This document shows, one piece after another, positions 1,172 to 23,035 of a stretch of 23,502 bases of DNA. A program made the position numbers and the translations under genes. Origin of the DNA: a virus; UHGV virus genome UHGV-0080740; one strand, 5' to 3'. Below the pieces are notes generated by a model that saw only the letters and a program-made list of their open reading frames with translations, searched no databases and was not told where the DNA came from. Positions within the stretch are counted from its first letter, which is position 1. Every line of letters starts with the position of its first letter.

Positions 1172-4100
1172 GTGGTGTTTTTTATTCCTGATGTTTTTTT
1201 GTTGTGGTTTCAGAACGGTGAGATTCGGGGCCCGCGCGTTAGCGTGGGAGGTGCTCCTGTTCTTGGTACTGATGGCACTCCAGTTATGCGCGATGCCCTA
1301 AAACTGGCAGATGAAGCCACTATCACGGCGCGGATGAACGCGATCCCGCACTCAAATTACCGTGCAGTCGTGTTTACCAAAGAACAATACGCCCGCATTC
1401 CGCTACGTGATGACACCGTAGATGAGCATGCACAGGATATGCTTTATGACTTCGTTGCCGCCGGGCGCGTAGCCAGCGCAATGGACTCCGACTCCCACCG
1501 CAAAGAGGCCGCGCGTCGCCGGGTATTGTCGGAGTATTCAGATACCGGTACCGAAAAAGCAGAGAAGTATCCGTACTTTGAGGATATGGGCTTCGATAGT
1601 GTGATCGCTGACGAAGGTCACAACTACCGCAATAGCTATAAAAATGGTCGCGAAGCGTCACAACTGGCCTATCTGCCCACCAGCGCGGTGGCGCAATCGG
1701 CGCGGGATATGGCAATTAAAAACGCGTACCTGATGAAAAAGAATGGTGGGCGCGGACCGGTTCTCCTGACTGCAACGCCAGTCGTTAACACCCCGATCGA
1801 TGCATACAACATGCTTTCTCATGTGCTGCCGAAGGAATACTGGCAGAAGATGGGGATCTACGGTCCTGATGACTTCGTTAAATTCTTCGGCAAGACCAGG
1901 CTGGAAACGGTACAGAAAATCAGCGGTGAAGTTGAAGAAAAAATGGCGCTGGTGGGCTTTGAAAACCTTGATGCGCTGCGCGGCATATTCCATCGCTGGA
2001 CAACGCTTAAAACGGCGGAAGACGTTAAGGATACCGTGGAGATCCCGGAACTGGACGAACACCAGCAGGATGCACCACTTACTGAAGAACAACTGGCGGC
2101 GTATGAAGAATTACGCCAGCAGGCGGAAGCGGTGGCCAAAGCCAACAATGGCGTAACGACCTCGGTCGATGAAGACGGAGTGATTGAGCACGAGAAAGCC
2201 CGTCCGATCTTCTCAATAATCAGGGATATGGACCGCGTATGTACTGACATGGACCTGTACTATCGCCGGATCACCTATCGTTTCCTGCCGGAGTACGCCG
2301 ATGCGGTGCAGCAGCTGGCGGACAGTTTGCCTAAACAAGCCACCAGCGAAGACGACGACAGTGATGATTCAATCACGCAGCAATCGCAATACTCCCTGAT
2401 AGATAAGGGCGAGTTTATTCAGTTGCAGGTTCCGGAAGCGTTCGAGCAGGAAGTGAATAAGCGCCTGGCCAGGTTTGGCATTGACGAACAGACCGTAACT
2501 CACCCCGTTACGCCCAAATACGCGAAGCTGATTGCCACGCTGAAGGAGTTTTTCCCGGAAGGGAAGCAAATCATCTTCACCGACGAAAAAACGCAGCACC
2601 AGAAGCTCAAGCGCATTATCTGCAATGTTCTTAACCTTGAACCTTCAATGGTAGGGATCCTGAATGCTCAGACGGTTGCCGAGGCAGGTAAAACCGGTAA
2701 GAAACTGAAAGCGGTTAAACCGCCGAAAGAGTTACCGGATGAACCAACAGATGCACAGATAGCGAAATACAACGAGCAAATGGCTCTGTATGACGCCTAT
2801 ATCGCGCAGCAAAATGAAATGTCGTTGGGCGGTCTGGAAAAGATTGCAGCCGACTTCCAGGAGGGCCGGACTCCGATCATTATCTGCAACAAAAAGGCAG
2901 AGGTGGGTATCAACCTGCATCGAGGAACGACTGACATCCATCATCTGACGTTGCCATGGACACCAGCCAGTGTCGCACAGCGTAACGGTCGCGGTGCCCG
3001 AGTTGGCTCCAACCGTGCAAGCGTTCGCGTTCATTACTACTGCGGCAAGGGTTCTTTCGATGAATACCGACTGAAGACGCTGAAGCGTAAAGCAGGCTGG
3101 ATCTCCGATATCCTCCGTTCAGATAAGTCAGAAATGGAGAACGCCGACGCCAACGATATGATCGAAATGCAGATGTATACCGCTAAGGATGATGGCGAAC
3201 GTCTGGCAATGATGCAGGTTCAAATGGATAAGGCGAAAGCCGCGCAACGCGCCCGCCAGAAAGAACAGGCCGCTATCGACCTTCAGAACTACATCAAGGC
3301 GCAACATGCAGCTGGCGAGGATGTTGCGGCTCTTACCGCTGAATTAGAGCGAAGTAAAGCGGAACTTGAAAAGACCACCGCCGAGGTAGCTAAATTCAAA
3401 CAGGCGGTAATGGCCAAAGCAGCTGATAATGCAGGCTGGAAGGCCCGCTGGGGTAGCGTCCATCACACAGACCGTACGTTGTTAGCACATTATCGCGCGT
3501 CGTTGAAAAGCGCCATTCAGCGCAAGGCTAATATCACTCAAGCCATCTCCCGCTATGAGAAATTATTGAACCGTACTCAGAAGGCCGCGACGGATATCAA
3601 ACGCCTGCGCCCGCTGGTGGAGGATGCAATAAATAAAGGCATTCTGGATGTTGATCCTGATCTGGTTAACCATGCGAATGAGTTCCTTGTTATCGGCGAT
3701 CGCTCATGGCGTGTAGGCCAATACTACGATTGTGCCGGTGATATCGTTCGCATTAAGTCGCTGGACTTCGACAGCCAGCGCGCAGACGTGGAGATCATCT
3801 TTACCTTCAAAGGCACCAAATCGGGTAACTGGGATGTGAAGACGCTGGATAAACAGGTGGATGTAACTCCCGATGAAGATGCTGTTATGCAGAAAATCAG
3901 TGGTGGCGTCTCCATCGCCGGGATTAACGACATCATTTCCTGTGACGATTTCTACCGTTTCCAGCAGCGCGGCATGATCAAAATCACTGACTCATACGGC
4001 GTTCAGACTACAGAGTCAGGCTATAGCATTGATTTTGTTGGTACCTATACGGACCCACTGAAGCATGCGGTTTACCCGGATCGCCGTGACGGCGCGCTGA

Positions 4101-5224
4101 AGTCGTCAATTGCAAAATGGGTGCTTGGTATGATGTCGGAAGGGAATAACCGCCAGGTCCGTTTGGCAGAAGTATTCCTGACTGAACTGTTTGGCTCCAA
4201 TTATGGCGAAGTAATCGCGTCATACGGAGATACGCTATCCCCTGAAGCAATTCAGGAGAAAATAGCGGATGCGATCGCCAGAATGCCGGAGAAAACAAGC
4301 CAGGGGGCTACTCGTAACGGGGATTCTGAACTTGAGGTCACCAATGCCATTTTCGGTACCCATGAGTTCCGGGCGTCAGATTATGAGATCACCACAGCAC
4401 AGTTTGGCACCATTGGCATTTACAGCAATAAAGACGAGATCAAGCAGGCAATGGACGCTGCAAGCGCGCGTATTGCAGCAGAACGGAAAGCCAATCTGAA
4501 TCATGCAGTCGCCGCGCTGACTCAATCGTGGGTAACAGCAATCAGGGAGGCCGCCACCACAGGGAAAATCACACCGGCAATTGCGGATGTCGTAAACGAC
4601 GGCTCTAAATTTATGGATGCCTATCAAATGGATGCGGTGCAGTTGCCATCAGCCTATGGGCAACTCAGCTATCGCATGACCTACAACCTGGTATCAATGT
4701 TTTCCGACCTTGCCATCCTTGGGCTGGTGGACCTTAACGAGGTTACGCCGGAATTGCTTAGCATGCGCAAGAATCATGTTGAGATATTGCAGAGAATTAA
4801 CACGGTTCTTGCCGGGCGCACCGATGAAGAGAAACAGGCCGACGCTGATCGGATAAACCTGGCCCTAGGCAACATCACGGAGGAAGAAATTGCCGCCAGA
4901 AACGAGAAACAAGAAGAGTTATCATCAATACAGGGTGATGCCACCAGCATAGCTCAGTCTCTTGGTCTGAATTATCGCGTATCCACCGCCGACCTGAAGA
5001 TGATGTACGCACCAAAATTCGCAGCTGGTGAGGTATTTGGGCTTCAGGAGGCGTCCGGCATGAAAGGCGTTCTTTTCCGTGCTAAAGACGCAATCAAGGA
5101 AAAATTCGGCGCTCGCTGGCTGCCAGCGAAGGCGAAGAACAGCGATTTCCCGGGCAACTGGTGGATTATCGAGACAAAACACAACGTGGCGGACGTTCTG
5201 GCCGTCATCCAACAATACGCATAA
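1172..5224 (+). CDS. darB: SF2 helicase-domain protein, DarB-like, apparently 5'-truncated (1350 aa from GTG)
   Basis: Helicase motifs II (IADEGH), III (TATPVVN) and VI (QRNGRGARVG) present, no Walker A upstream; in-frame TGA at 1145-1147; position upstream of ulx/lxc-like genes fits P1 darB (about 2255 aa, recalled). Confidence 0.6.
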   Translation: MVFFIPDVFLLWFQNGEIRGPRVSVGGAPVLGTDGTPVMRDALKLADEATITARMNAIPHSNYRAVVFTKEQYARIPLRDDTVDEHAQDMLYDFVAAGRVASAMDSDSHRKEAARRRVLSEYSDTGTEKAEKYPYFEDMGFDSVIADEGHNYRNSYKNGREASQLAYLPTSAVAQSARDMAIKNAYLMKKNGGRGPVLLTATPVVNTPIDAYNMLSHVLPKEYWQKMGIYGPDDFVKFFGKTRLETVQKISGEVEEKMALVGFENLDALRGIFHRWTTLKTAEDVKDTVEIPELDEHQQDAPLTEEQLAAYEELRQQAEAVAKANNGVTTSVDEDGVIEHEKARPIFSIIRDMDRVCTDMDLYYRRITYRFLPEYADAVQQLADSLPKQATSEDDDSDDSITQQSQYSLIDKGEFIQLQVPEAFEQEVNKRLARFGIDEQTVTHPVTPKYAKLIATLKEFFPEGKQIIFTDEKTQHQKLKRIICNVLNLEPSMVGILNAQTVAEAGKTGKKLKAVKPPKELPDEPTDAQIAKYNEQMALYDAYIAQQNEMSLGGLEKIAADFQEGRTPIIICNKKAEVGINLHRGTTDIHHLTLPWTPASVAQRNGRGARVGSNRASVRVHYYCGKGSFDEYRLKTLKRKAGWISDILRSDKSEMENADANDMIEMQMYTAKDDGERLAMMQVQMDKAKAAQRARQKEQAAIDLQNYIKAQHAAGEDVAALTAELERSKAELEKTTAEVAKFKQAVMAKAADNAGWKARWGSVHHTDRTLLAHYRASLKSAIQRKANITQAISRYEKLLNRTQKAATDIKRLRPLVEDAINKGILDVDPDLVNHANEFLVIGDRSWRVGQYYDCAGDIVRIKSLDFDSQRADVEIIFTFKGTKSGNWDVKTLDKQVDVTPDEDAVMQKISGGVSIAGINDIISCDDFYRFQQRGMIKITDSYGVQTTESGYSIDFVGTYTDPLKHAVYPDRRDGALKSSIAKWVLGMMSEGNNRQVRLAEVFLTELFGSNYGEVIASYGDTLSPEAIQEKIADAIARMPEKTSQGATRNGDSELEVTNAIFGTHEFRASDYEITTAQFGTIGIYSNKDEIKQAMDAASARIAAERKANLNHAVAALTQSWVTAIREAATTGKITPAIADVVNDGSKFMDAYQMDAVQLPSAYGQLSYRMTYNLVSMFSDLAILGLVDLNEVTPELLSMRKNHVEILQRINTVLAGRTDEEKQADADRINLALGNITEEEIAARNEKQEELSSIQGDATSIAQSLGLNYRVSTADLKMMYAPKFAAGEVFGLQEASGMKGVLFRAKDAIKEKFGARWLPAKAKNSDFPGNWWIIETKHNVADVLAVIQQYA

Positions 5225-6937: not shown

Positions 6938-7627
6938 ATGGAAGTTATCTACATAGTAGAACCAATCATTTCCACAAGCACTAACAAGTTGATAGCAGTG
7001 GAAGTGTTGAGCAGATTTTATTCCAACGAGGGGGCTATTCTTTCTACTCAGAAAGTATTAGGTATGTTTACAAGCAAGATGAAGATTAACTTGCTAAAAT
7101 CTCAACTTAACACAATAATCAAATATAAGTATTTTTTTGAATGCCATAATATATTATGCTCTATCAATGTAGATTATGATACCTGTTTATATATATATGG
7201 CAATAAACAAATTCAAGAACTACTAATAAACAATAAATTTATAGCGATTGAGATATCAGAAAACTATCCTGATTTAAGCGATGAGGATTACATCATATCC
7301 TTTCTACTGACTTTGACAGATAATGTTTGGCTTGATGATTTTGGAAGTGGTAACGCCACCATGAAAGCATTAATTAAAAATAAATATCATGCAATAAAAC
7401 TTGATAAGTCATTTTTTCAAGAGCATATGATTAAGCCTCATTTTGATGTCATTATTAGCAATTTAAAAAAGTTATGTCCGAATATCATCGCTGAAGGCGT
7501 CGAAAACATTGATTGTCATAAGTTATCAAAAGGGATAGGGCTATGGGGCACTCAGGGATATTTTTTCCCATCAATTCCGCTGACGGAGATTGAGTCCATA
7601 GATAGTAAGTGGCTATCAGATTTATGA
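6938..7627 (+). CDS. stand-alone EAL-domain protein, YdiV-like, 229 aa
   Basis: EAL signatures in order: EVLSR (EAL variant), EISE, DDFGSGNATMKAL, KLDKSF, EGVE, QGYFF; no sensor or GGDEF domain; strong SD GGGTGGGAG. Confidence 0.8.
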   Translation: MEVIYIVEPIISTSTNKLIAVEVLSRFYSNEGAILSTQKVLGMFTSKMKINLLKSQLNTIIKYKYFFECHNILCSINVDYDTCLYIYGNKQIQELLINNKFIAIEISENYPDLSDEDYIISFLLTLTDNVWLDDFGSGNATMKALIKNKYHAIKLDKSFFQEHMIKPHFDVIISNLKKLCPNIIAEGVENIDCHKLSKGIGLWGTQGYFFPSIPLTEIESIDSKWLSDL

Positions 7628-11676: not shown

Positions 11677-12528
11677 ATGATAAATTATGTCTACGGCGAA
11701 CAACTGTACCAGGAGTTCGTCAGCTTCAGGGATCTCTTTCTAAAAAAAGCTGTTGCACGCGCCCAACACGTTGATGCCGCCAGCGACGGTCGTCCTGTTC
11801 GCCCGGTTGTCGTTCTGCCGTTCAAAGAAACGGACAGCATTCAGGCTGAAATTGATAAATGGACTTTAATGGCGCGGGAACTGGAACAGTACCCAGACCT
11901 CAATATCCCAAAGACTATTTTATATCCAGTGCCTAACATCCTTCGCGGTGTACGTAAGGTTACAACTTATCAGACAGAAGCTGTGAACAGCGTCAACATG
12001 ACCGCTGGCCGCATTATTCATCTGATTGATAAGGATATTCGCATCCAAAAAAGCGCGGGGTTCAATGAGCACAGTGCGAAATACATAGAGAACCTGGAAG
12101 CAACAAAAGAGCTAATGAAGCAGTACCCGGAGGATGAAAAATTCCGTATGCGCGTACACGGCTTTAGCGAAACAATGCTGCGCGTCCACTACATTTCCAG
12201 TAGCCCTAACTACAATGATGGTAAATCAGTTAGTTACCATGTGCCACTGTGTGGCGTGTTTATCTGCGATGAAACCCTCCGTGATGGAATCATCATCAAC
12301 GGTGAATTCGAGAAAGCAAAATTTAGCCTTTATGACTCCATAGAACCGATCATCTGCGACCGCTGGCCGCAGGCAAAAATATATCGCCTGGCAGATATTG
12401 AAAATGTAAAAAAACAAATTGCCATCACTCGCGAAGAGAAAAAGGTCAAATCAGCCGCATCAGTTACGCGCAGTCGTAAAACTAAGAAGGGGCAGCCAGT
12501 AAACGACAACCCCGAAAGCGCGCAATAA
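11677..12528 (+). CDS. c1: C1 repressor of lysis, 283 aa
   Basis: MINYVYGEQLYQEFVSFRDLFLKKAVARAQ... recognised as P1 C1; SD GGAGG. Confidence 0.95.
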   Translation: MINYVYGEQLYQEFVSFRDLFLKKAVARAQHVDAASDGRPVRPVVVLPFKETDSIQAEIDKWTLMARELEQYPDLNIPKTILYPVPNILRGVRKVTTYQTEAVNSVNMTAGRIIHLIDKDIRIQKSAGFNEHSAKYIENLEATKELMKQYPEDEKFRMRVHGFSETMLRVHYISSSPNYNDGKSVSYHVPLCGVFICDETLRDGIIINGEFEKAKFSLYDSIEPIICDRWPQAKIYRLADIENVKKQIAITREEKKVKSAASVTRSRKTKKGQPVNDNPESAQ

Positions 12529-12560: not shown

Positions 12561-13706
12561 TTATTCAGCCGCCACCGGTTTTAACAAGCCAGCATCGAGC
12601 AGTTTACGCGTCAACCACTGTTGTCCTTTCCCCGTTAATTGGGGCGTCAGCCGTATCTGGTAGCCATCTTCATCATCCAGCACCACTTCTTTCACTGTGA
12701 AATATCCGGCGTTTATGTACTGCTGGAACGGCACATTTTTACGCCCGCCGGACGCTATCAGAATGCCGTTCTCCCGTAACCAGGCAAACAGCGCGTTTTG
12801 CTTCAGCCCAACAACCTTTGCAAAATTACCAATCAGGATCCCCTTAGCCACTGATACACGGTCGGCAAAATCGACCTTGGGGGCTGCGGCCACCAGTTGT
12901 TGATTTAGCTGGTGGGCCTTCTGTTCCAGTAGCTGCTTTTGTTCAGCCAGCTCGGCAGCCAGGCGCAAGGCTTCAGGTAGTGTTTGGGGGATTGCGACCG
13001 GTTGCTGTTCTTTTTGCCGGAAGTAGCTGTCTTCCAGTTTTTCAAAGAATGCCCATGCTTCATCTGTGTTTACGATCTTAGACATGCGTGCCGCTCCGCG
13101 TTCGGCCCAAAGAATTACCTGGCTTGTATATTTGCTAACCAGGTGACTAGTAGTCACCAGCCTTTTAAATTCCTTTAATTTTGAACCAGTTAAGAGATAG
13201 TAATGCTTACCTTCTTCAAAGCGATCGGAGTTGCGAGACAAATTTTTACGAATATTAGCTTCATCGGTTCCATACCCCTTAGCAAGAGTTTCGGTCGTTA
13301 CTACACGCACTCCCAGCCATTCCAGAACGGGAATTTCATCAGACTGATTCTGAACAACCACCAGCTCTGATTCCTGAACTGAAGTTGCATGAATTTTTTC
13401 TGATTTAACGTTAGTTGCTTTCATTCTGTGTGCCTCCTTGCGTGCTTCGGCTGCGACGGTTGCGTAATTCAGATGACCCTGTTCGAGCAGGTATTCACGG
13501 ATATCGGTCACAGCGATAGCCTTTAAGCGCAGATAAACATCGCGCTTATCGACATCCAGATGCGGGTATTCCTTTTCAAGAATTGCTGCGAGTTCTTTCG
13601 CTGATAGAAGAGATTTAGTGCGGATCATGTAATCCGCAATCTCGTACGATGTTATTCGTGAGTGATTTATTTCCATGAAGTGGCGTCCCTGCCAGTTAAG
13701 TAACAT
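12561..13706 (-). CDS. antirepressor-like protein with KilA-N/ORF6N-type and KilAC (ANT) domains, 371-381 aa
   Basis: Central segment VRVVTTETLAKGYGTDEANIRKNLSRNSDRFEEGKHYYLLTG fits ORF6N/KilA-N; C-terminus GILIGNFAKVVGLKQNALFAWLRENGIL...NVPFQQYINAGYFTV fits KilAC; alternative start at 13676. Confidence 0.7.
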   Translation of the reverse strand: MLLNWQGRHFMEINHSRITSYEIADYMIRTKSLLSAKELAAILEKEYPHLDVDKRDVYLRLKAIAVTDIREYLLEQGHLNYATVAAEARKEAHRMKATNVKSEKIHATSVQESELVVVQNQSDEIPVLEWLGVRVVTTETLAKGYGTDEANIRKNLSRNSDRFEEGKHYYLLTGSKLKEFKRLVTTSHLVSKYTSQVILWAERGAARMSKIVNTDEAWAFFEKLEDSYFRQKEQQPVAIPQTLPEALRLAAELAEQKQLLEQKAHQLNQQLVAAAPKVDFADRVSVAKGILIGNFAKVVGLKQNALFAWLRENGILIASGGRKNVPFQQYINAGYFTVKEVVLDDEDGYQIRLTPQLTGKGQQWLTRKLLDAGLLKPVAAE

Positions 13707-13794: not shown

Positions 13795-14841
13795 TTATCT
13801 AACGCTCGACGAATGACTTGTGATAGCGCCGACTCCAAGCGCGTAATCAAAGAACAATCGTTGATGCATCGCCAGCCTACCGTGCGTCTTCTCCCAATTA
13901 TCGCGGTCACGCTCAATATCACGCTGGCATGACTGGCACAGAGGAATAGCATAAATGTCATGCGCGCATAATCGACTATAACGAACGATATAAGGCGTAA
14001 TGTGAGCGCCAGCTCCCGCCGCTCCACACCCACAGCATGGACGGGAAGCAACAAAGTCCATGTACTCAGGTAATTTTAGCGATTGCAGTTTTGGTATTTT
14101 GAAATGCGCCATACCTGGGTCGGAGTCAACATCCACAGGGCATACTTTTGCACGCATCGGCGCGGCGCGTTCTTCCATCATCTGAACATATGCTGTAGCG
14201 CGATCGTCATACGGGCGAATATCCGCCTCTTTCAGTGGTCCGCTATCCTGCGGAGTAGCCTTCATCTTATTTATTATTGATATGCGGCAGACTTCTTCCG
14301 GCATCAGGTGCATCATGTTGCGCATGAAAGCCCACCAGCACAGCTCCTGAATACTTAAATCATGGCTATTTGAAAGGCCCATTTCCTGACGGGCGACATC
14401 CAGTATCCAGTTAACGCGATTATTGTGCAGCGTTTCTTTCAGCTCATTAAAACCACGCATCCGGTAATGGTTATCGTGATGCCAGCACAACAACACCGCG
14501 CTATTGTCTCGTTCAGCGTGGACAATATGGTTGTCACACCAACTACGATCTGCGGCCTGGCATTGACCCTCTTTCCTACGCAACCACGCCACCAGCGCGT
14601 CAATTCCACCAATACGGCGAAACAGTTCATCGCTGTTAAAAAACGGCTGCAACGCCTCATTTGTTGCCATGGTTTGCTCGGTAACAACGAGGCCGTCTTC
14701 CATGTGCTCGATTAACTCACGCGGCACCGGCTCCATAATAAATTTACGGCCAGCCTCCACCAGCTTTCTGACCTCCTGATCCACTTTGAACGTGGCGAGG
14801 CCAAGCTCTTTCTGTACAAAGGGAGTAATTACGGCTTTCAC
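13795..14841 (-). CDS. hypothetical protein, 348 aa, with C-terminal Cys/His cluster
   Basis: GTG start with SD AAAGG; C-terminus PCCGCG...HITPY...[15 protein letters not shown] resembles a zinc/HNH-like module; possibly pdcB-position gene. Confidence 0.6.
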
Positions 14842-17580: not shown

Positions 17581-18077
17581 ACTCGCCTCTTAATACTGTA
17601 TATATGTTGTTACGATATGTTTTTCTGTCTCTAAAAAAAGATGTTTGAAGGGGATAAAAATATACAATTCCAACAAACGTTATTTTTAACAATTTTTTTC
17701 TTTGCGTTGACTTTCCCGGACACCTTGTCTGACCGAAGGTGCGCGAAAGCCACTTTTTCCTTCCTGAGTTATCCACAAAGTTATGCACTTGCAAGAGGGC
17801 CATTTTCTACATATTGTGGTGGCTAACAGATGAAATGAATGTAGATTAATTGAAGATAAGGAGAAAATTTGAGATGCAATCATGACGTTAATAGATAGGG
17901 TCTGCATTACAGACCCCACCCGCATCAAGGAATTAGCCGTTCCCTGATGTTTTTCCGAAAACATGTGCCGTAAGCTCACGTTAACGACTTTCATTCACCG
18001 AATCCAACTATATAGGGGTTGGGTTTCTACGTCAACGTGAGCAAGTGCACCTTTACATTTGACAAGGAACCACCTGA

Positions 18078-18215
18078 ATGAACGCTTTTTTTCAGTTCCT
18101 GAGTGCATTTTTAGATGCGCCTATTATTAGCCAGATTCTGGCTATTATCCTCATCATCGTTTTGATTTTGCTTTTAAGGTCAGTAAAAAATGGAATTATG
18201 CACTGGCTTACTTAA
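18078..18215 (+). CDS. candidate small hydrophobic membrane peptide, 45 aa
   Basis: MNAFFQFLSAFLDAPIISQILAIILIIVLILLLRSVKNGIMHWLT; SD AAGGA 9 nt upstream; below the ORF-track size cutoff. Confidence 0.4.
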   Translation: MNAFFQFLSAFLDAPIISQILAIILIIVLILLLRSVKNGIMHWLT

Positions 18216-18290
18216 TGTTTCAGTGAAACATTAAAATCTCCTTGATGTGGAAACAATCATTTTCTGTATGTGCTGGTGGGCACCTGTAGT

Positions 18291-18653
18291 TCAGCTTTCG
18301 TTGGCATTTAACTTCGTCTTTGCTTTCTCCACCAGCAACTTCCAGATGCCTATTTCATTAGCAGCCGCCTTGATGGCGGCATAAAAAGCATCTTGCTGAT
18401 CGTAACGCTGGATCTGTTTTTTCAGTTTTGCCTCCACCAATTTAATTTCATTACGTGCTTTCTGAAGCCGCATCACCGCCCGGTTACGTCTGTTCTTGTA
18501 TAGCGTGTTAATCTCTGACAATTGCTTTAATTTACCAGCCTGACTGCGGATTATCGCCTCCCTGGCTTCTGCCGTGCGTATCATCTGATCTCTTAAGAGT
18601 TCACCGTTTTCGATAATTCTTTCAAGGTGTTTGATGTGATCTGCAACTCTCAT
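18291..18653 (-). CDS. hypothetical coiled-coil protein, 120 aa
   Basis: Start overlaps stop of upstream gene; last gene of a - strand operon. Confidence 0.55.
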   Translation of the reverse strand: MRVADHIKHLERIIENGELLRDQMIRTAEAREAIIRSQAGKLKQLSEINTLYKNRRNRAVMRLQKARNEIKLVEAKLKKQIQRYDQQDAFYAAIKAAANEIGIWKLLVEKAKTKLNANES

Positions 18654-19531
18654 ACTTCACCCTCGCTTGTATCACCAGCGTCCACCAACGACAATAAAGC
18701 CCTGGCCATCTTATGAACCAACAGTGCATCAATAATGCCAAGCGTATGCCCCGGCTTAATGTTTAATGCTGCCTCAAGATGACACCTTTCCAGACCGCTT
18801 TTCTCGGCTTGTTTATGATGATATGGCGTAATAACGTCGCCCAAAACACGGCTAATTCTTTCTCGTAATTGCTGGGTGCCAGCACACTTGATCGCTGTAT
18901 CGTGGAGACGGTTAACCAGTTCGCGATAAACATGCGGCTTAATGCGGATACGTTCACCGGTGACGCCCTTTCCTGGCGTAGGCACCGAACTATCCGGAAT
19001 ATCCGGATAGTTGCCAGCCAGTCTACGCAAAACAGCCTTAATTGCATCAATACGGTCATCATCAACTTTTTCTACAATATTGGAATTTAAATACTTCGAA
19101 GCCTTGCTATGCCAATCGCTGGTTTTAGGGTCTTGTCCATCCATCAAACGCCAAGCTTCAGCGATTAACTCATAGCCAGTAACAGTGGCTTCCTGCGCAT
19201 CACCAATCAGTTGTGTGATCTCTCTTTCAAGCATGCTTAGAGCGTTAGGCATTGGTTTTTCTTCCGGTACTACTGGAACGGGGGGAGCGGCGTAGACCTC
19301 AATAATTCCATTATCAATAGGCCATTCTCCATCCTTGAGGTAGTCACTTGTGCCGTCAACTTGCTGTTCTGCAATGTGGAATGCACCTATTGGTTTTGCT
19401 TCCAGTGATGCCAGAGCAATTCGTGCCAGTTCTTCCGCTTCTTCTGCTGGCAGTACAACGTTGCTACCAGGTCCGTATGTTTCGCGCCACTGCTTGATTG
19501 TCAGTAGTCGCTCTTTGGTAATAGTGGTCAT
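18650..19531 (-). CDS. hypothetical protein, 293 aa
   Basis: Long ORF, overlapping start/stop with both neighbours. Confidence 0.6.
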   Translation of the reverse strand: MTTITKERLLTIKQWRETYGPGSNVVLPAEEAEELARIALASLEAKPIGAFHIAEQQVDGTSDYLKDGEWPIDNGIIEVYAAPPVPVVPEEKPMPNALSMLEREITQLIGDAQEATVTGYELIAEAWRLMDGQDPKTSDWHSKASKYLNSNIVEKVDDDRIDAIKAVLRRLAGNYPDIPDSSVPTPGKGVTGERIRIKPHVYRELVNRLHDTAIKCAGTQQLRERISRVLGDVITPYHHKQAEKSGLERCHLEAALNIKPGHTLGIIDALLVHKMARALLSLVDAGDTSEGEV

Positions 19532-20043
19532 GCCGCGTTTCCTTCTTTCTTATTAACAATTACACCGTCATATATTTCATTAAGGTGCCCTCTCAACTCC
19601 ATGCGCCTTAATGCAGATAACATGTAATCGCATTCAACCTGCTTATTTCCAGTAAATGGCTTATCGTCAGGATTACCCCAACAGCAATTACCCTTGGGCC
19701 ACCCATGTACTTTCCGTACTCTTCCGTTAACAACGTGAAGTAATCCCCAGCCAGGTGGTAAATCCTCAATTGAAATAATTCCCGGCTCACTAATAAAGAA
19801 TCGCCAGTCGCCCATTCCAAGAGACGGATTTTTACGAAAACGCTTTTTTCTATCTGCCAACAAGTCAGCACGAGAACACTTCGCCTCTATCAGGCATGAT
19901 GCTGAATTTCTGAATCCCATAGCATCTGGCTGTTCTCCGGTACTGGTTACAGCTATAAAGCGGTCATGAAAACAAACCTTGAACCCGTTGCGCTTAAGGA
20001 ACTTGTACGCAATCTGACAGAGTTCGCGGTGTGTTAACGCCAT
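19528..20043 (-). CDS. hypothetical protein, 171 aa, possible PD-(D/E)xK nuclease fold
   Basis: D-x(n)-EAK arrangement (PDAMGF...CLIEAKCS); fold assignment tentative. Confidence 0.5.
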   Translation of the reverse strand: MALTHRELCQIAYKFLKRNGFKVCFHDRFIAVTSTGEQPDAMGFRNSASCLIEAKCSRADLLADRKKRFRKNPSLGMGDWRFFISEPGIISIEDLPPGWGLLHVVNGRVRKVHGWPKGNCCWGNPDDKPFTGNKQVECDYMLSALRRMELRGHLNEIYDGVIVNKKEGNAA

Positions 20044-20044
20044 A

Positions 20045-20411
20045 TCACTCTCCTTTGATGCGAATGCCAGCGTCAGACATCATATGCAGATACTCAACTG
20101 CATCCTGAACCCATTGACCGCCAATCCCGTAATAGCGATGCGTAATGATGTCGATAGTTACTAACGGGTCTTGTTCGATTAACTTCCGTAGAAACTCTTC
20201 CAGGTCACCAGTGCAGTGCTTGATGACAGGAGTTTTCCCAGGATGGCGAACAACAAGAAACTGATTTCCGACTTCACGGACTTCGTTGCTTTCCAGTTCT
20301 GCTATCCATAAAAATGAAATGGACGCTAACGCCAGCTTTTCGCTGTGCTTCCATCAGATGAACGAGATAAGCCGATGTTCGTCCACCTGAAAAGCTGACG
20401 ACTTGATGCAT
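20045..20411 (-). pseudogene. PP-loop ATPase-like gene (SGGxxS motif) split by a frameshift
   Basis: Frame A MHQVVSFSGGRTSAYLVHLMEAQRKAGVSVHFIFMDSRTGKQRSP stops at 20274-20276; the -1 frame is open from 20353 to 20045; frames overlap 20274-20353. Confidence 0.45.
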
Positions 20412-20420
20412 ACTCACGGT

Positions 20421-20999
20421 TTATTCCTGAATGCGCTTAAACTCGATTACCCATACCAACGGGTTAGATAGCCAGTTATCCTGCCCGTAAATACTGCGCC
20501 AGATATCACCAAAACCAACGCGATAAACAGCTTCAGATGGCGTAATCTTGTACGTCGCCGGAGTTGCGCCTTCTGCTTTAGCATCTTCCTCGCTCATGTC
20601 ATGCAGCCGTTCCACACGCACGTCGGTAATTTCCAAAAGAATGCGCGATGCCCAGCGCGGCATGTGAATTGATGGCGTCCACTTTTCTGATACTGGTTTA
20701 TTACAAACCTCGACCGGAACCCGGTGCGTTTGTTCTGTCCAGGAGTTACGCACGCTTGCGCGATAAACCAGCGTTGCGACGTCCGTCGCTTTGCCATGTA
20801 CCCGGTAGGTTTCGCGAACCCAAATACGATCGCCCGGTTGACCATATGGACAATGCTTGGCAAGCAACTCTGCGGCCACTGCCCGTCCATAGAATTTTTC
20901 TTCAACAATCCTGCGAGTCTGTGTTTTATTCCCGCCAAGAATTGCCCGGACCATCTCATCGTTAAAAATCATGCCGCGCTCTTTCACTTCGCCTTTCAT
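20421..20999 (-). CDS. hypothetical protein, 192 aa, ASCH/PUA-like N-terminus (tentative)
   Basis: N-terminus IFNDEMVRAILGGNKTQTRR resembles the ASCH GxKxxExR region. Confidence 0.55.
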   Translation of the reverse strand: MKGEVKERGMIFNDEMVRAILGGNKTQTRRIVEEKFYGRAVAAELLAKHCPYGQPGDRIWVRETYRVHGKATDVATLVYRASVRNSWTEQTHRVPVEVCNKPVSEKWTPSIHMPRWASRILLEITDVRVERLHDMSEEDAKAEGATPATYKITPSEAVYRVGFGDIWRSIYGQDNWLSNPLVWVIEFKRIQE

Positions 21000-21008
21000 G
21001 CATCCCCC

Positions 21009-21095
21009 TTACCCATGTGCGACGATGCCGCCAAAAGTGATAGAGAACAGCCAGAAATAGATCGCGGCCATAATGATTTTGAATGCCGTGTTCAT
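21009..21095 (-). CDS. candidate hydrophobic micro-protein, 28 aa
   Basis: MNTAFKIIMAAIYFWLFSITFGGIVAHG; SD AGGAG 8 nt upstream; CCAATCAATCA just upstream of SD. Confidence 0.35.
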   Translation of the reverse strand: MNTAFKIIMAAIYFWLFSITFGGIVAHG

Positions 21096-21123
21096 ATTTT
21101 CAGCTCCTGTGATTGATTGGATA

Positions 21124-21149
21124 CATGCCGCGCCTTGCGGCATGTTTTT
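21124..21149 (+). terminator. hairpin plus T-run (+ strand terminator; on - strand a 5'-UTR stem-loop downstream of C1 operator)
   Basis: catgccgc-gcctt-gcggcatg followed by tttttatttt. Confidence 0.45.
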
Positions 21150-21177
21150 ATTTTCACTTTCTCTGTTTTAAAAATCA

Positions 21178-21194
21178 TTATTTATTAGAGCAAT
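21178..21194 (-). promoter_or_regulatory. C1 operator
   Basis: - strand ATTGCTCTAATAAATAA, 15/17 to consensus; at the 3' end of the HAD-like gene, upstream of the micro-ORF/ASCH operon. Confidence 0.7.
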
Positions 21195-21700
21195 TATTGT
21201 TGATGGAGAAGCGCGTTTTCATACTCCCTGACCATTAACGTAAGCACGCCGTGCCTCCTGAAAACACGCGCCACTTCAATCTTATCTTCCAGCGCGAACG
21301 CAATTTTGCTTAGACCAATTTTCTTAAGGAGATCAATCTTTGCTGGACCGTCATTTCTGTCATCGGTGGCGGGACGCATAGATAGCAAAGGCTCTGCCCC
21401 ATTTGTTACGTGCTTACGCAACCAGGCTCGTGTTTTATCCCTGGCTATCTCACAGCGCCCGGTTACAAACCAGAGCGTGTAAATGCTGGACAACTGGCGC
21501 ACCATATCAATAACTGGAGTGATGGAAGCATCAGTGTCACAGGCAAGGTTAAACTCGTTCCAGTGCTCTGTTAATGCACCGTTGCCAGGCGGTGGAAGTA
21601 AATGCAGCCTGTCTTCCGTTGCCTCCGATATCGTTCCATCAATATCTACTATGACAATGTACGGACGTTCCTGGTGTGCGTGTTTATTGAAAATACTCAA
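21194..21700 (-). CDS. HAD-superfamily phosphatase-like protein, 168 aa (TTG start)
   Basis: Motif I IVIVDIDGTI (DxDGT); strong SD GAGGAGGG before TTG. Confidence 0.6.
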   Translation of the reverse strand: MSIFNKHAHQERPYIVIVDIDGTISEATEDRLHLLPPPGNGALTEHWNEFNLACDTDASITPVIDMVRQLSSIYTLWFVTGRCEIARDKTRAWLRKHVTNGAEPLLSMRPATDDRNDGPAKIDLLKKIGLSKIAFALEDKIEVARVFRRHGVLTLMVREYENALLHQQ

Positions 21701-21772: not shown

Positions 21773-23035
21773 TCAGCGAACGTAAATAGTGCCGCCGTTC
21801 ACTTTTTCCCATGCATCGCTAAGTGCATAGCAAACATCAAGAAGTCTTCTTGCCGCTGTTTCCTCTAAACCCAATTCGACAACCAACTGCTCATGACGGC
21901 GGGTAACCACATCAAACAGGGTATGCAGCCCTTTAGCTGCCAGATCATCAATAAATTCCGGTTCGAACGGCAGCTCTGCATCTGCCAACATAACCTCTTG
22001 CGCCCACTCAACTCGACGGACCAGTTCCGGGCGGCGGCTTTCCATCTCTTTACAGATCAATTCATGGAAGAACTCTACCCAACCTTCCGGCTGGAACTCG
22101 CGGAAAATTGCCAACGGCTGGAAGTTTGGCATCAACCATTCGTTGATTCGGATATCAATGGCATAGCCCATGTCGCAGCAGAACTGATAAGCAAAGTCCA
22201 GCTTAGAAACGATATAAGGACGCTCGTTATTGAACTCTTTAGGCGATGAGATCCCATAAGCCAGGAGGCGCGGGAAGAATGAGATTTGCCCTAACGTCGG
22301 ATGGAGTTTGCTTGCAGGAAAACGGCGCTCAGTAATGCCATACATTTCCTTCTTGAGCGTCGCAAATTTAGCATTTTCATTAACCAGCGCGGTAACCTCT
22401 GCTTTTTTATTAGCAAATGCCACGCGCGCTTCGCTTGCATCTTTAATAGTTTTTTTGAGCTGTTGGTTAAGATCGGCGACCTGCTTACGCAGTTCCTGTC
22501 GCTCGCTTTTAGCTTTGTTATAGCGTTTCTCAAGGTTAAAAGGATCAAGTTTCATGATCTCTTTATATTGAGATTTTAGCGTTGAAATCTGTGAGTTCCG
22601 CAGTTCAACCATCGCGGTCATTTCATTGAGTTTTGTTTCCAGCTCAATGCTTATACGTTCGGCATTATCAGCACGCTGGTTGGCGTCATGCGTCGCATCG
22701 TCGATCGCGTCCTGTTGCTGGCGTTTCAAATGTTCAATTTGCAGCTGAAGCTCTTCAATTTCTTTACCCTTCAGACCGAGATCCAACTGCATATTTTCAG
22801 CTGCATCTACCAGGGAGTTATGGCTATCAGCTTCTGCGTTATAAACATCAATAAGCTGTGCGTGAAGCATCTCCGCTGACTGAACCGCATTATCAAAAAA
22901 ACGCGCTGTGAGGTCATCACAACTAACGCGGCGTTGCGCGGCCCGGATGTTCTGGATAATGGCCGGGATACCGGCATTCAGGACGTCAGGGATAGATACA
23001 TTTTCGATTGATTGGTTTTGTGCTGAAGTGCTCAT
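21773..23035 (-). CDS. hypothetical protein, 420 aa, N-terminal coiled coil plus globular C-terminal domain
   Basis: Long ORF with heptad-like charged region aa 90-230; start 1 nt after stop of upstream 72-aa ORF. Confidence 0.65.
   Translation of the reverse strand: MSTSAQNQSIENVSIPDVLNAGIPAIIQNIRAAQRRVSCDDLTARFFDNAVQSAEMLHAQLIDVYNAEADSHNSLVDAAENMQLDLGLKGKEIEELQLQIEHLKRQQQDAIDDATHDANQRADNAERISIELETKLNEMTAMVELRNSQISTLKSQYKEIMKLDPFNLEKRYNKAKSERQELRKQVADLNQQLKKTIKDASEARVAFANKKAEVTALVNENAKFATLKKEMYGITERRFPASKLHPTLGQISFFPRLLAYGISSPKEFNNERPYIVSKLDFAYQFCCDMGYAIDIRINEWLMPNFQPLAIFREFQPEGWVEFFHELICKEMESRRPELVRRVEWAQEVMLADAELPFEPEFIDDLAAKGLHTLFDVVTRRHEQLVVELGLEETAARRLLDVCYALSDAWEKVNGGTIYVR

Follow-up and report, generated by a model that had tools for sequence, protein, structure and literature searches.

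The locus lies on the minus strand between positions 18291 and 21194 of UHGV virus genome UHGV-0080740, a stretch of 23,502 nucleotides that is referred to below as the window. Judged by synteny and orthology, it is the known and annotated C1-repressed pmgT-pmgU-pmgV accessory operon of P1/P7-like phage-plasmids (the 'hea' operon in P7), with pmgS and pap upstream and upfM downstream. Its 192-aa product is a homologue of PmgT (Upf86.8 in P7), its 171-aa product corresponds to P7 Upf89.0, the C-terminus of its 293-aa product is PmgU and its 120-aa product is PmgV. The original prediction had found no way of mapping these genes onto named P1 functions, and this has to be corrected: they are pmgT, pmgU and pmgV of P1 and P7. 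The objection that it had raised against itself, that all might be conserved P1 genes of established unrelated function, is right as to the genes, which belong to P1 and P7, and fails as to the function, none being established. The tight coupling that it had noticed is real, being visible as ATGA overlaps at 19528-19531 and 18650-18653.

Operator, leader and first reading frame

The C1 repressor operator ATTGCTCTAATAAATAA, at 21178-21194 on the minus strand, is the equivalent of P1 Op88/OpmgT and of P7 "Op(hea)". It matches the 17-bp, asymmetric C1 operator consensus ATTGCTCTAATAAATTT at 15 of 17 positions and aligns column for column with the annotated protein_bind features of P1 and P7, as expected of the operator first proposed from the letters alone. 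Fifteen of its 17 positions are invariant across five aligned elements, the varying two being the 3'-terminal bases. Seven C1-operator-like sites are observed in the window, against a chance expectation of 0.13, and the cognate C1 is encoded there as well, by a 283-aa open reading frame (11677-12528) that is covered by a 95% DNA match to RCS47 ant / c1 / coi. As for the annotated P1 operator, the site sits downstream of pap, sharing its first base with the end of the pap stop codon, and overlaps a predicted promoter. Two sigma-70 promoters, P1pmgT and P2pmgT, are predicted at 21150-21193 on the minus strand by transfer of the P1 annotation via the blastn offset, and the -35 boxes of both overlap or abut the operator; our own promoter scan returned no strong sigma-70 site, just a weak match at 21222-21193. 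C1 control and the operon architecture, as originally predicted, are both supported.

A GC-rich stem-loop with a 9-bp stem, ACAUGCCGC-AAGGC-GCGGCAUGU (21123-21145, minus strand), lies where the mRNA is predicted to begin or close by. It had also been recognized in the original prediction, and not one of its bases differs among P1, P7 and two plasmids. On the plus strand it looks like a terminator hairpin followed by a T-run; its reading as an attenuator or terminator of the operon was rejected because the coding strand carries no U-tract. Rfam recognized no known RNA family across the entire window.

The hydrophobic 28-aa peptide MNTAFKIIMAAIYFWLFSITFGGIVAHG is encoded at 21009-21095 on the minus strand, in the reading frame that had been predicted, with AGGAG placed 8 nt upstream of its ATG. 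Mean Kyte-Doolittle hydropathy reaches 2.1 over residues 7-26. The peptide is identical in other P1-like plasmids, and across five elements its reading frame varies at one site only, the third position of an Ala codon, where the change is synonymous. The P1 record leaves it without annotation, and RefSeq offers a 44-aa alternative starting at 21143. Since the ATG of that longer version lies inside the hairpin and lacks a Shine-Dalgarno sequence, the 28-aa call suits the sequence better.

Immediately upstream of the operator, at 21194-21700 on the minus strand, is the pap gene. Its product, which shares 95% identity with P1 Pap, is a HAD 3'-phosphatase that stands alone and is of the polynucleotide kinase-phosphatase type; it matches Pfam HAD_PNKP above threshold (E 3.5e-11). 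The gene is the HAD-phosphatase-like one that had been assigned to a separate unit, and it does lie outside the operator-controlled one. A strong terminator-like hairpin (21753-21725) stands between it and pmgS.

Encoded proteins and a deletion scar

The 192-aa protein of the PmgT family (20421-20999, minus strand), of the P7 Upf86.8 type, contains a YqfB-type (GxKxxTxR) ASCH domain, enlarged by insertions and extended at the C-terminus; it is 84% identical to P7 Upf86.8 and just 43% to P1 PmgT. The PUA-like beta-barrel of the ASCH fold is recognizable, and the octapeptide GxKxx[T/S]xR is conserved as G23, K25, T28 and R30. Three of these residues, K25, T28 and R30, are invariant in 57 homologues together with E143, which aligns with Glu74 of YqfB; in the latter enzyme catalytic roles are held by Lys21, Thr24, Arg26 and Glu74, the acid (PMC6972931). 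Profile matches are faint: Pfam ASCH (PF04266) scores 16.9 bits, under its gathering threshold of 21.2, and matches weakly in 11 of the 57 homologues, and hhalign to YqfB yields a local alignment only, at a probability of 18%. The earlier ASCH-like call is nonetheless borne out by the fold and by the invariance of the residues that match the YqfB Lys/Thr/Arg/Glu set, so that the protein can be described as a YqfB-type ASCH protein of putative activity, in which the catalytic set of YqfB is complete.

A first homologue search with this protein recovered near-identical sequences only; its diversity emerged from an exhaustive search of representatives, in which the family numbers more than 43,000 cluster representatives, with its clusters mostly located where temperate phages keep their early accessory genes. 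Its neighbours in 79 other viral contigs include a RecT-type recombinase, RdgC, Dam and MT-A70 methylases, a DksA/TraR zinc finger and excisionase, which places the habitat of the family, as far as gene neighbourhoods tell, in the early-left accessory region. No constant partner gene was found across these 79 loci (their neighbours form 165 clusters, the largest of which occurs at 15), and a functional pairing of ASCH with the PP-loop protein was dropped for that reason. The context of one distant homologue, on a 1.5-kb contig, gave nothing useful; literature searches returned nothing specific for a link between ASCH and phages, and for 'pmgT' nearly all matches were unrelated.

The PP-loop-like protein of the original prediction does not correspond to a gene. 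What remains is a stub of a PAPS reductase gene, codons 1-37 of 290 (20301-20417, minus strand, from tblastn and a RefSeq pseudogene; surviving codons 20411-20301), followed in a different frame by 86 codons of an ead/Ea22-like gene. The 47-aa reading frame that carries the stub still has a PP-loop motif of the SGGxDS-like kind (SFSGGRTS), and the stub is identical at 35 of 37 residues to the intact 290-aa protein of CP142546 (tblastn), with a sub-threshold Pfam PAPS_reduct match. Beyond residue 37 the catalytic domain is missing and the frame runs on into the Ea22 remnant, out of phase, to a stop at 20274. That remnant (20045-20305, minus strand) comprises codons 141-226 and the stop, with the last 86 codons at 20305-20048, and lacks an in-frame start codon, no open reading frame of at least 25 aa being listed in its frame; it is identical (86/86) to the C-terminus of the Ea22-like protein of pJIE250_3. 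RefSeq, in NZ_CP135674, calls the first stub a pseudogene without C-terminus and the second a pseudogene without N-terminus. The junction occurs in one other record only, and the two stubs together are, on these alignments, a deletion scar. A literature search for a link between PAPS reductase, BREX and anti-defence returned nothing specific.

The 171-aa protein (19528-20043, minus strand), identical (100%) to P7 Upf89.0, had been put forward as a possible PD-(D/E)xK nuclease, and both the fold and the catalytic signature hold. Its core follows the alpha-beta-beta-beta-alpha-beta order, and the D...(D/E)xK residues D40, E53 and K55, with E37 in addition, do not vary among 42 homologues, which reach down to 59% identity. 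Pfam and NCBIfam gave no match for the protein itself; in its family the best Pfam match is Hjc (E 0.018), matched weakly in 17 of the 42 members, and a PDB profile search reached 3dnx at E 0.46. We take it to be an MmcB-like PD-(D/E)xK protein and probably a small DNA nuclease.

The 293-aa protein (18650-19531, minus strand) is a hybrid. Its N-terminal part, about 180 aa, is common to prophage 'DUF551/EaA' proteins, and its residues 183-293 (111 aa) are 93% identical to P1 PmgU; the N-terminal 62% is 96-97% identical to proteins with a DUF551 domain, that domain itself being replaced here. The breakpoint of DNA homology with P1 falls within the gene, at 19019. Neither Pfam nor PDB matched this protein, and a PglZ match (E 0.001, 15.6 bits) was disregarded as noise. 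The last gene of the operon (18291-18653, minus strand) encodes the 120-aa PmgV (P7 Upf90.8), 96% identical to P1 PmgV, with a full-length match to phrog_4403. Other matches of PmgV, to sub-threshold NCBIfam models (best DndD) and to ribosomal protein L17, are weak and not significant; that to DndD, far under its threshold, was disregarded, and we take it to reflect a coiled-coil-like composition. For all four proteins, PDB sequence searches, single-protein and profile, gave no significant match, and NCBIfam and PADLOC returned noise only.

A mosaic between conserved flanks

The genes just described lie between two conserved flanks. At the 5' side the hairpin, the 28-aa membrane-peptide frame and the first codons of pmgT are near-invariant; at the 3' side the PmgU domain and pmgV are conserved. 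Gene content in between varies from element to element, and close relatives carry quite different sets. The window holds an intact YqfB-type ASCH gene, the PAPS reductase/Ea22 scar, an intact MmcB-like gene and the hybrid of a DUF551 partner with PmgU. P1 has just a scarred ASCH gene, PmgU and PmgV between the same flanks, and the reference P1 arrangement (pmgT/pmgU) derives from a longer operon by a deletion fusion of its own. The region that follows pap has been published as hypervariable, as RD-5 (PMC6906374) and as region 8 (PMC9603915).

A source can be named for this cargo. Gp11-gp16 of Shigella phage Ss-VASD, namely a PAPS reductase, two small reading frames, an Ea22-like protein, a homologue of Upf89.0 and a DUF551-type protein, match it in genes and in their order, with 96-97% DNA identity over 19232-20072; the P1-like plasmid CP142546 has the same order, to the extent that it is annotated in an incomplete PLSDB table. 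In lambdoid phages such a block resides within the pL operon, between the recombination genes and xis/int; in the window it has moved behind a C1 operator of P1 and has lost part of its sequence. As these comparisons read, the cargo comes from the early-left (exo-xis or 'ea') region of lambdoid prophages, swapped in between the conserved flanks, and the region acts as a slot for cassettes, taking up early-left genes of lambdoid origin. The element that bears it looks defective, with the N-terminus of lpa fused to an antirepressor and with neither pacA nor pacB between pdcB and c1 in the window. Because of these defects, and because a sister plasmid has an insertion sequence in the nuclease gene, the cargo may be decaying in this element, and not under selection.

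Proposed role and known relatives

We consider it probable, from sequence comparison, that the locus is an early, C1-repressed accessory operon following pap, here mosaic and partly decayed, whose products have separate and dispensable functions. In the plasmid state, C1 bound to the operator would keep the operon off. Derepression or infection would then allow early transcription starting close to the hairpin, and the hairpin would stabilize the mRNA at its 5' end. The ASCH protein would hydrolyse an N4-acylated cytosine substrate, either a free nucleoside or ac4C in tRNA, and the PD-(D/E)xK protein would cut or process DNA. Both would serve in host conditioning or counter-defence, each dispensable individually, and they would belong neither to one pathway nor to virion morphogenesis.

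One may ask whether the cargo has any function at all, the region being just a recombination hotspot in which hitch-hiking genes decay and intact reading frames escape selection. Two gene stubs within the operon, the deletion fusion of P1's own pmgT/pmgU, the ISVsa5 that interrupts the nuclease gene of a near-identical plasmid, the absence of pacA/pacB and the dispensability of the genes in P1 (PMC10695390) all speak for it. We nevertheless find it unlikely: catalytic residues of both enzymes are invariant across diverged homologues, the ASCH family is very large as counted above, reading frames and translational coupling are intact, and hundreds of contigs encode exact copies of the 192-aa and 293-aa proteins.

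Improbable too is the coherent module of the original prediction, in which ASCH, PP-loop and nuclease proteins, possibly with Pap, would jointly modify or repair nucleic acids or tRNA, or counter restriction. Its appeal is that every recognisable domain acts on nucleic acids or nucleotides, and Pap falls in the Pnkp phosphatase family, which T4 uses in tRNA repair. In CP142546, moreover, an intact PAPS reductase gene is immediately preceded by an ASCH gene. One coherent module is nevertheless hard to reconcile with the locus, because the PP-loop gene is dead, reduced here to 37 codons, and the genes come from different sources, lambdoid 'ea' cargo and P1 backbone. Gene sets also differ among relatives: P7 has ASCH and nuclease genes without PAPS reductase, P1 a scarred ASCH gene only, Ss-VASD PAPS reductase and nuclease with no ASCH gene annotated. 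The ASCH family, besides, keeps no constant neighbour in the 79 viral contigs, and Pap stands outside the operator-controlled unit.

A cassette expressed in the lysogen for defence or superinfection exclusion, protecting the host, would fit the general literature, where variable regions of phage-plasmids often hold defence genes, and a small membrane peptide with a nuclease is typical of such systems; it is very unlikely here, since an operon behind a C1 operator should be off in the lysogen, and no PADLOC model rose above noise in a library that covers defence systems, not counter-defence proteins. As for virion morphogenesis, the P1 record labels pmgT, pmgU and pmgV putative morphogenetic and neighbouring P7 genes are named for head and sheath functions, but this is largely refuted, the label being misleading and contradicted by the non-essentiality of P1 pap, pmgT, pmgU and pmgV in CRISPRi and a deletion library (PMC10695390), by early C1 operator control with no late promoter between pap and pmgV in the P1 record, by folds that are those of enzymes, and by viable relatives in which the content is replaced wholesale.

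Returning to the accessory operon with separate functions, we may push the reading of its first enzyme further, though we hold this extension rather doubtful. The PmgT family might be a phage-deployed N4-acylcytosine amidohydrolase of the YqfB type, expressed at once upon derepression, that would strip ac4C from the tRNA of the host, or else free nucleotides or DNA of an N4-acyl mark, with the possible effect that translation is reprogrammed or a modification-dependent defence evaded. The ac4C of E. coli tRNA sits at the wobble base of elongator tRNA-Met. Diverse ASCH proteins remove tRNA ac4C (bioRxiv 10.64898/2026.02.27.708502). If true, a P1 'pmg' accessory gene would for the first time have a function assigned to it, viruses would have their first RNA-modification eraser of the YqfB type, and action on tRNA ac4C would give a very large, unstudied phage protein family a testable function. 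The locus as such adds little, its operator, operon and hypervariability being already annotated or published and a near-identical RefSeq plasmid carrying the same pseudogene calls; the useful point is that, despite the 'pmg' names, PmgT appears to be an ASCH enzyme and P7 Upf89.0 an MmcB-like nuclease.

Set against YqfB, the N4-acetylcytidine amidohydrolase of E. coli (ASCH, GK[T/S]R subgroup; PDB 9kyf), the protein of the window has 192 aa instead of 103, with two insertions and a helical C-terminal extension, has Asp139 in place of His70, and is phage-borne and repressor-controlled; its roughly 90 extra residues could alter the substrate. The 171-aa family resembles MmcB-like PD-(D/E)xK proteins (structure 3dnx, SPO1766) and Hjc-type resolvases, while staying below every Pfam threshold. 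At the level of the operon, P1 pmgT-pmgU-pmgV (NC_005856) and P7 upf86.8-upf90.8 (NC_050152) occupy the same position between pap and upfM, with the same operator, leader hairpin and small reading frame at 99% mean column identity. P7 has upf87.4, upf87.6 and an intact Ea22, all absent from the window, and lacks the PAPS reductase stub that the window has; where the window encodes the 293-aa hybrid, P7 encodes the 432-aa Upf89.5 and P1 the 111-aa PmgU. The E. coli plasmid pMTY9803_untypable1 (NZ_CP135674.1) shares 99.9% identity with the window throughout this region, the PAPS reductase/Ea22 junction included, and RefSeq marks both pseudogenes there as well as the ASCH protein. Its gene for the 171-aa nuclease, intact in the window, carries an insertion of ISVsa5.

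The pmgT operon and its layout

The window derives, as megablast indicates, from a P1/P7-like phage-plasmid, and its locus is one that was known and annotated before. The observation is largely confirmed and its interpretation partly supported. All elements of the operon lie on the minus strand. In the ORF listing pmgS (21773-23035) and pap (21194-21700) precede it, and the C1 operator ATTGCTCTAATAAATAA (21178-21194), which fits the consensus for P1 C1 operators in 15 of its 17 positions, opens it; with up to three mismatches allowed, the window holds seven operator-like sites against 0.13 expected from shuffles. Downstream come a GC-rich stem-loop of 9 bp (21123-21145) and a hydrophobic ORF of 28 codons (21009-21095) with AGGAG 8 nt 5' of its ATG, followed by ORFs of 192, 47, 171, 293 and 120 codons separated by short gaps or ATGA overlaps. 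The anatomy originally described (operator, stem-loop, peptide ORF, tight gene spacing) was accurate, save for one gene, the PP-loop member.

RefSeq calls the leader ORF as a 44-aa protein (WP_001312275.1, 21009-21143, minus strand), whose ATG falls inside the hairpin and lacks a Shine-Dalgarno sequence; a 28-aa membrane peptide from the internal ATG at 21095, with AGGAG upstream, seems more plausible. The ORF is absent from the P1 annotation, though its sequence is conserved there. A T-run follows the hairpin on the plus strand only, and the structure is therefore scored as an intrinsic terminator, one that would act on antisense transcripts heading towards pap.

The genes had been thought impossible to map onto P1 functions, which was wrong, since protein comparison places every one of them on P1/P7 names. 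In the P1 record the homologous 17-mer is the 'monovalent C1-controlled operator OpmgT; corresponds to former Op88', which overlaps two predicted promoters, P1pmgT and P2pmgT, and has pmgT, pmgU and pmgV behind it; the P7 record has 'Op(hea)', then upf86.8 to upf90.8. The 192-aa protein is 84% identical to P7 Upf86.8 and 43% to P1 PmgT residues 1-239, the 171-aa protein 100% to P7 Upf89.0, residues 183-293 of the 293-aa protein 93% to P1 PmgU, the 120-aa protein 96% to P1 PmgV, and the window's Pap 95% to that of P1. The P1 names pmgT, pmgU and pmgV carry no established function.

A variable cassette between conserved flanks

P1, P7 and two plasmids share 99% identity over a 5' flank made up of operator, hairpin, small ORF and the first codons of pmgT, the small ORF varying at a single, synonymous third position. 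Matching plasmids number roughly 1,300. The 3' flank (17901-19019: PmgU domain, pmgV and beyond) is likewise common to all elements compared, and between the flanks gene content differs in every element examined. Published comparisons already list this stretch as a shared hotspot, under the names RD-5, between pap and lxr (PMC6906374), and variable region 8 (PMC9603915). The cargo matches the early-left region of lambdoid phages: Shigella phage Ss-VASD has the order exo, ssb, ..., PAPS reductase, two small genes, Ea22-like, Upf89.0 homologue, DUF551 protein, ..., xis, int, and the P1-like plasmid CP142546 follows it as far as it is annotated, its PLSDB table being incomplete.

It is in this cargo that the PP-loop-like gene of the original prediction turns out to be a scar, with 37 of 290 residues left and joined out of frame to an Ea22-like remnant. 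By tblastn, 20411-20301 codes for residues 1-37 of a 290-aa PAPS reductase family protein, the gene of which is intact in CP142546, and 20305-20048 codes, in another frame and without a start codon, for residues 141-226 of an ead/Ea22-like protein. As translated, the 47-aa ORF is a PAPS reductase stub continuing into the wrong frame. Exactly these two pieces are marked as pseudogenes by RefSeq in NZ_CP135674.1, a nearly identical sister plasmid from E. coli; a search of 72,556 plasmids and 5,426 complete E. coli genomes showed the junction in no further record.

The 293-aa protein is a hybrid. Prophage proteins with a DUF551 domain at their C-terminus share 96-97% identity with its first ~180 residues; in the window's protein the PmgU domain stands in place of DUF551, and 19019 is the breakpoint of DNA homology between window and P1. 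P1's own pmgT/pmgU pair (NC_005856, 3651-4720, breakpoint about 4020-4025) has the look of a deletion fusion. Over residues 1-232, PmgT shares 99% identity with a 242-aa ASCH protein of CP142546; beyond, the frame enters, out of phase, the 3' part of a gene of the Upf89.5/293-aa type, and PmgU, which starts at a GTG, is what remains of that gene as a C-terminal ORF. For PmgV, weak, sub-threshold hits were obtained and no informative match. Opposite, between pmgV and upfM and overlapping the upfM start, a strongly hydrophobic 45-aa ORF (18078-18215, plus strand), annotated 'hypothetical protein' in CP142546 and with no PHROG match, could encode a small membrane protein or toxin, or be spurious.

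State of the element

In a 381-aa ORF (12561-13706, minus) the N-terminal ~70 residues of Lpa, the late-promoter activator, are fused to an ORF6N/KilAC antirepressor. The ORF lies between pdcB (13795-14841) and c1 (11677-12528), an interval without pacA/pacB or room for them. The element is probably a P1-like plasmid defective in packaging and in late genes. In the sister plasmid, ISVsa5 lies inside the 171-aa nuclease gene, at window 19877-19885, where the two blast segments share 9 bp, the pattern that a target-site duplication would leave. Both features temper the functional reading. Elsewhere, a 1350-aa ORF (1172-5224, plus) aligns with a DarB-like PHROG (methyltransferase/helicase, antirestriction) over no more than positions 921-2278 of its 2278 and appears to be darB with a truncated N-terminus or a frameshift. 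Between it and ref/cre, a 229-aa EAL-domain protein of c-di-GMP phosphodiesterase type (6938-7627, plus) occupies the site that in P1 is the res-mod variable region.

What the cassette may do

The ASCH fold of the 192-aa protein and the PD-(D/E)xK-like fold of the 171-aa protein, both originally proposed, hold. That the genes make up one coherent pathway of modification or repair is unlikely: the window has only a dead remnant of the PP-loop gene, and elsewhere the operon genes are found in other combinations. The 'morphogenetic' label is disposed of by enzyme folds, early C1 control and non-essentiality, P1 pap, pmgT, pmgU and pmgV being dispensable by CRISPRi knock-down and in a deletion library (PMC10695390). 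The operon is best supported as an early, repressor-controlled accessory cassette, the intact products of which are probably an N4-acylcytosine-type hydrolase and a DNA nuclease, each acting independently. As for its target and benefit, we infer that it would contribute to host conditioning or counter-defence.

Neighbours of the PmgT-like ASCH gene in 79 other viral contigs include RecT-type recombinases, RdgC, Dam and MT-A70 methylases, a DksA/TraR zinc finger, excisionase and small DUFs, none of them a constant partner. Many of these IMG/VR contigs (L010-L089) carry it within 0.5-3 kb of a contig end, often adjoining an excisionase, which places it, in integrated prophages, near that end of the early-left operon where the attachment site lies. 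The completeness of the catalytic residues in this very large PmgT/ASCH family is the sole lead worth an experiment.

Predicted structural matches of the 192-aa protein include PH0355, EF3133, 3iuw, PF0470 and Zymomonas ASCH, its Pfam ASCH score being under threshold. According to a 2026 preprint, all 19 diverse ASCH proteins removed ac4C from tRNA (bioRxiv 10.64898/2026.02.27.708502). The motif G23-N-K25-T-Q-T28-R-R30 is the YqfB-type 'GK[T/S]R' octapeptide, and hhalign, in a local alignment of low probability, sets E143 opposite YqfB Glu74 and D139 opposite His70. The window protein is nearly twice as long as YqfB, an enzyme in which Lys21, Thr24 and Arg26 are essential and turnover is 100- to 1000-fold lower in the Glu74Ala variant (PMC6972931).
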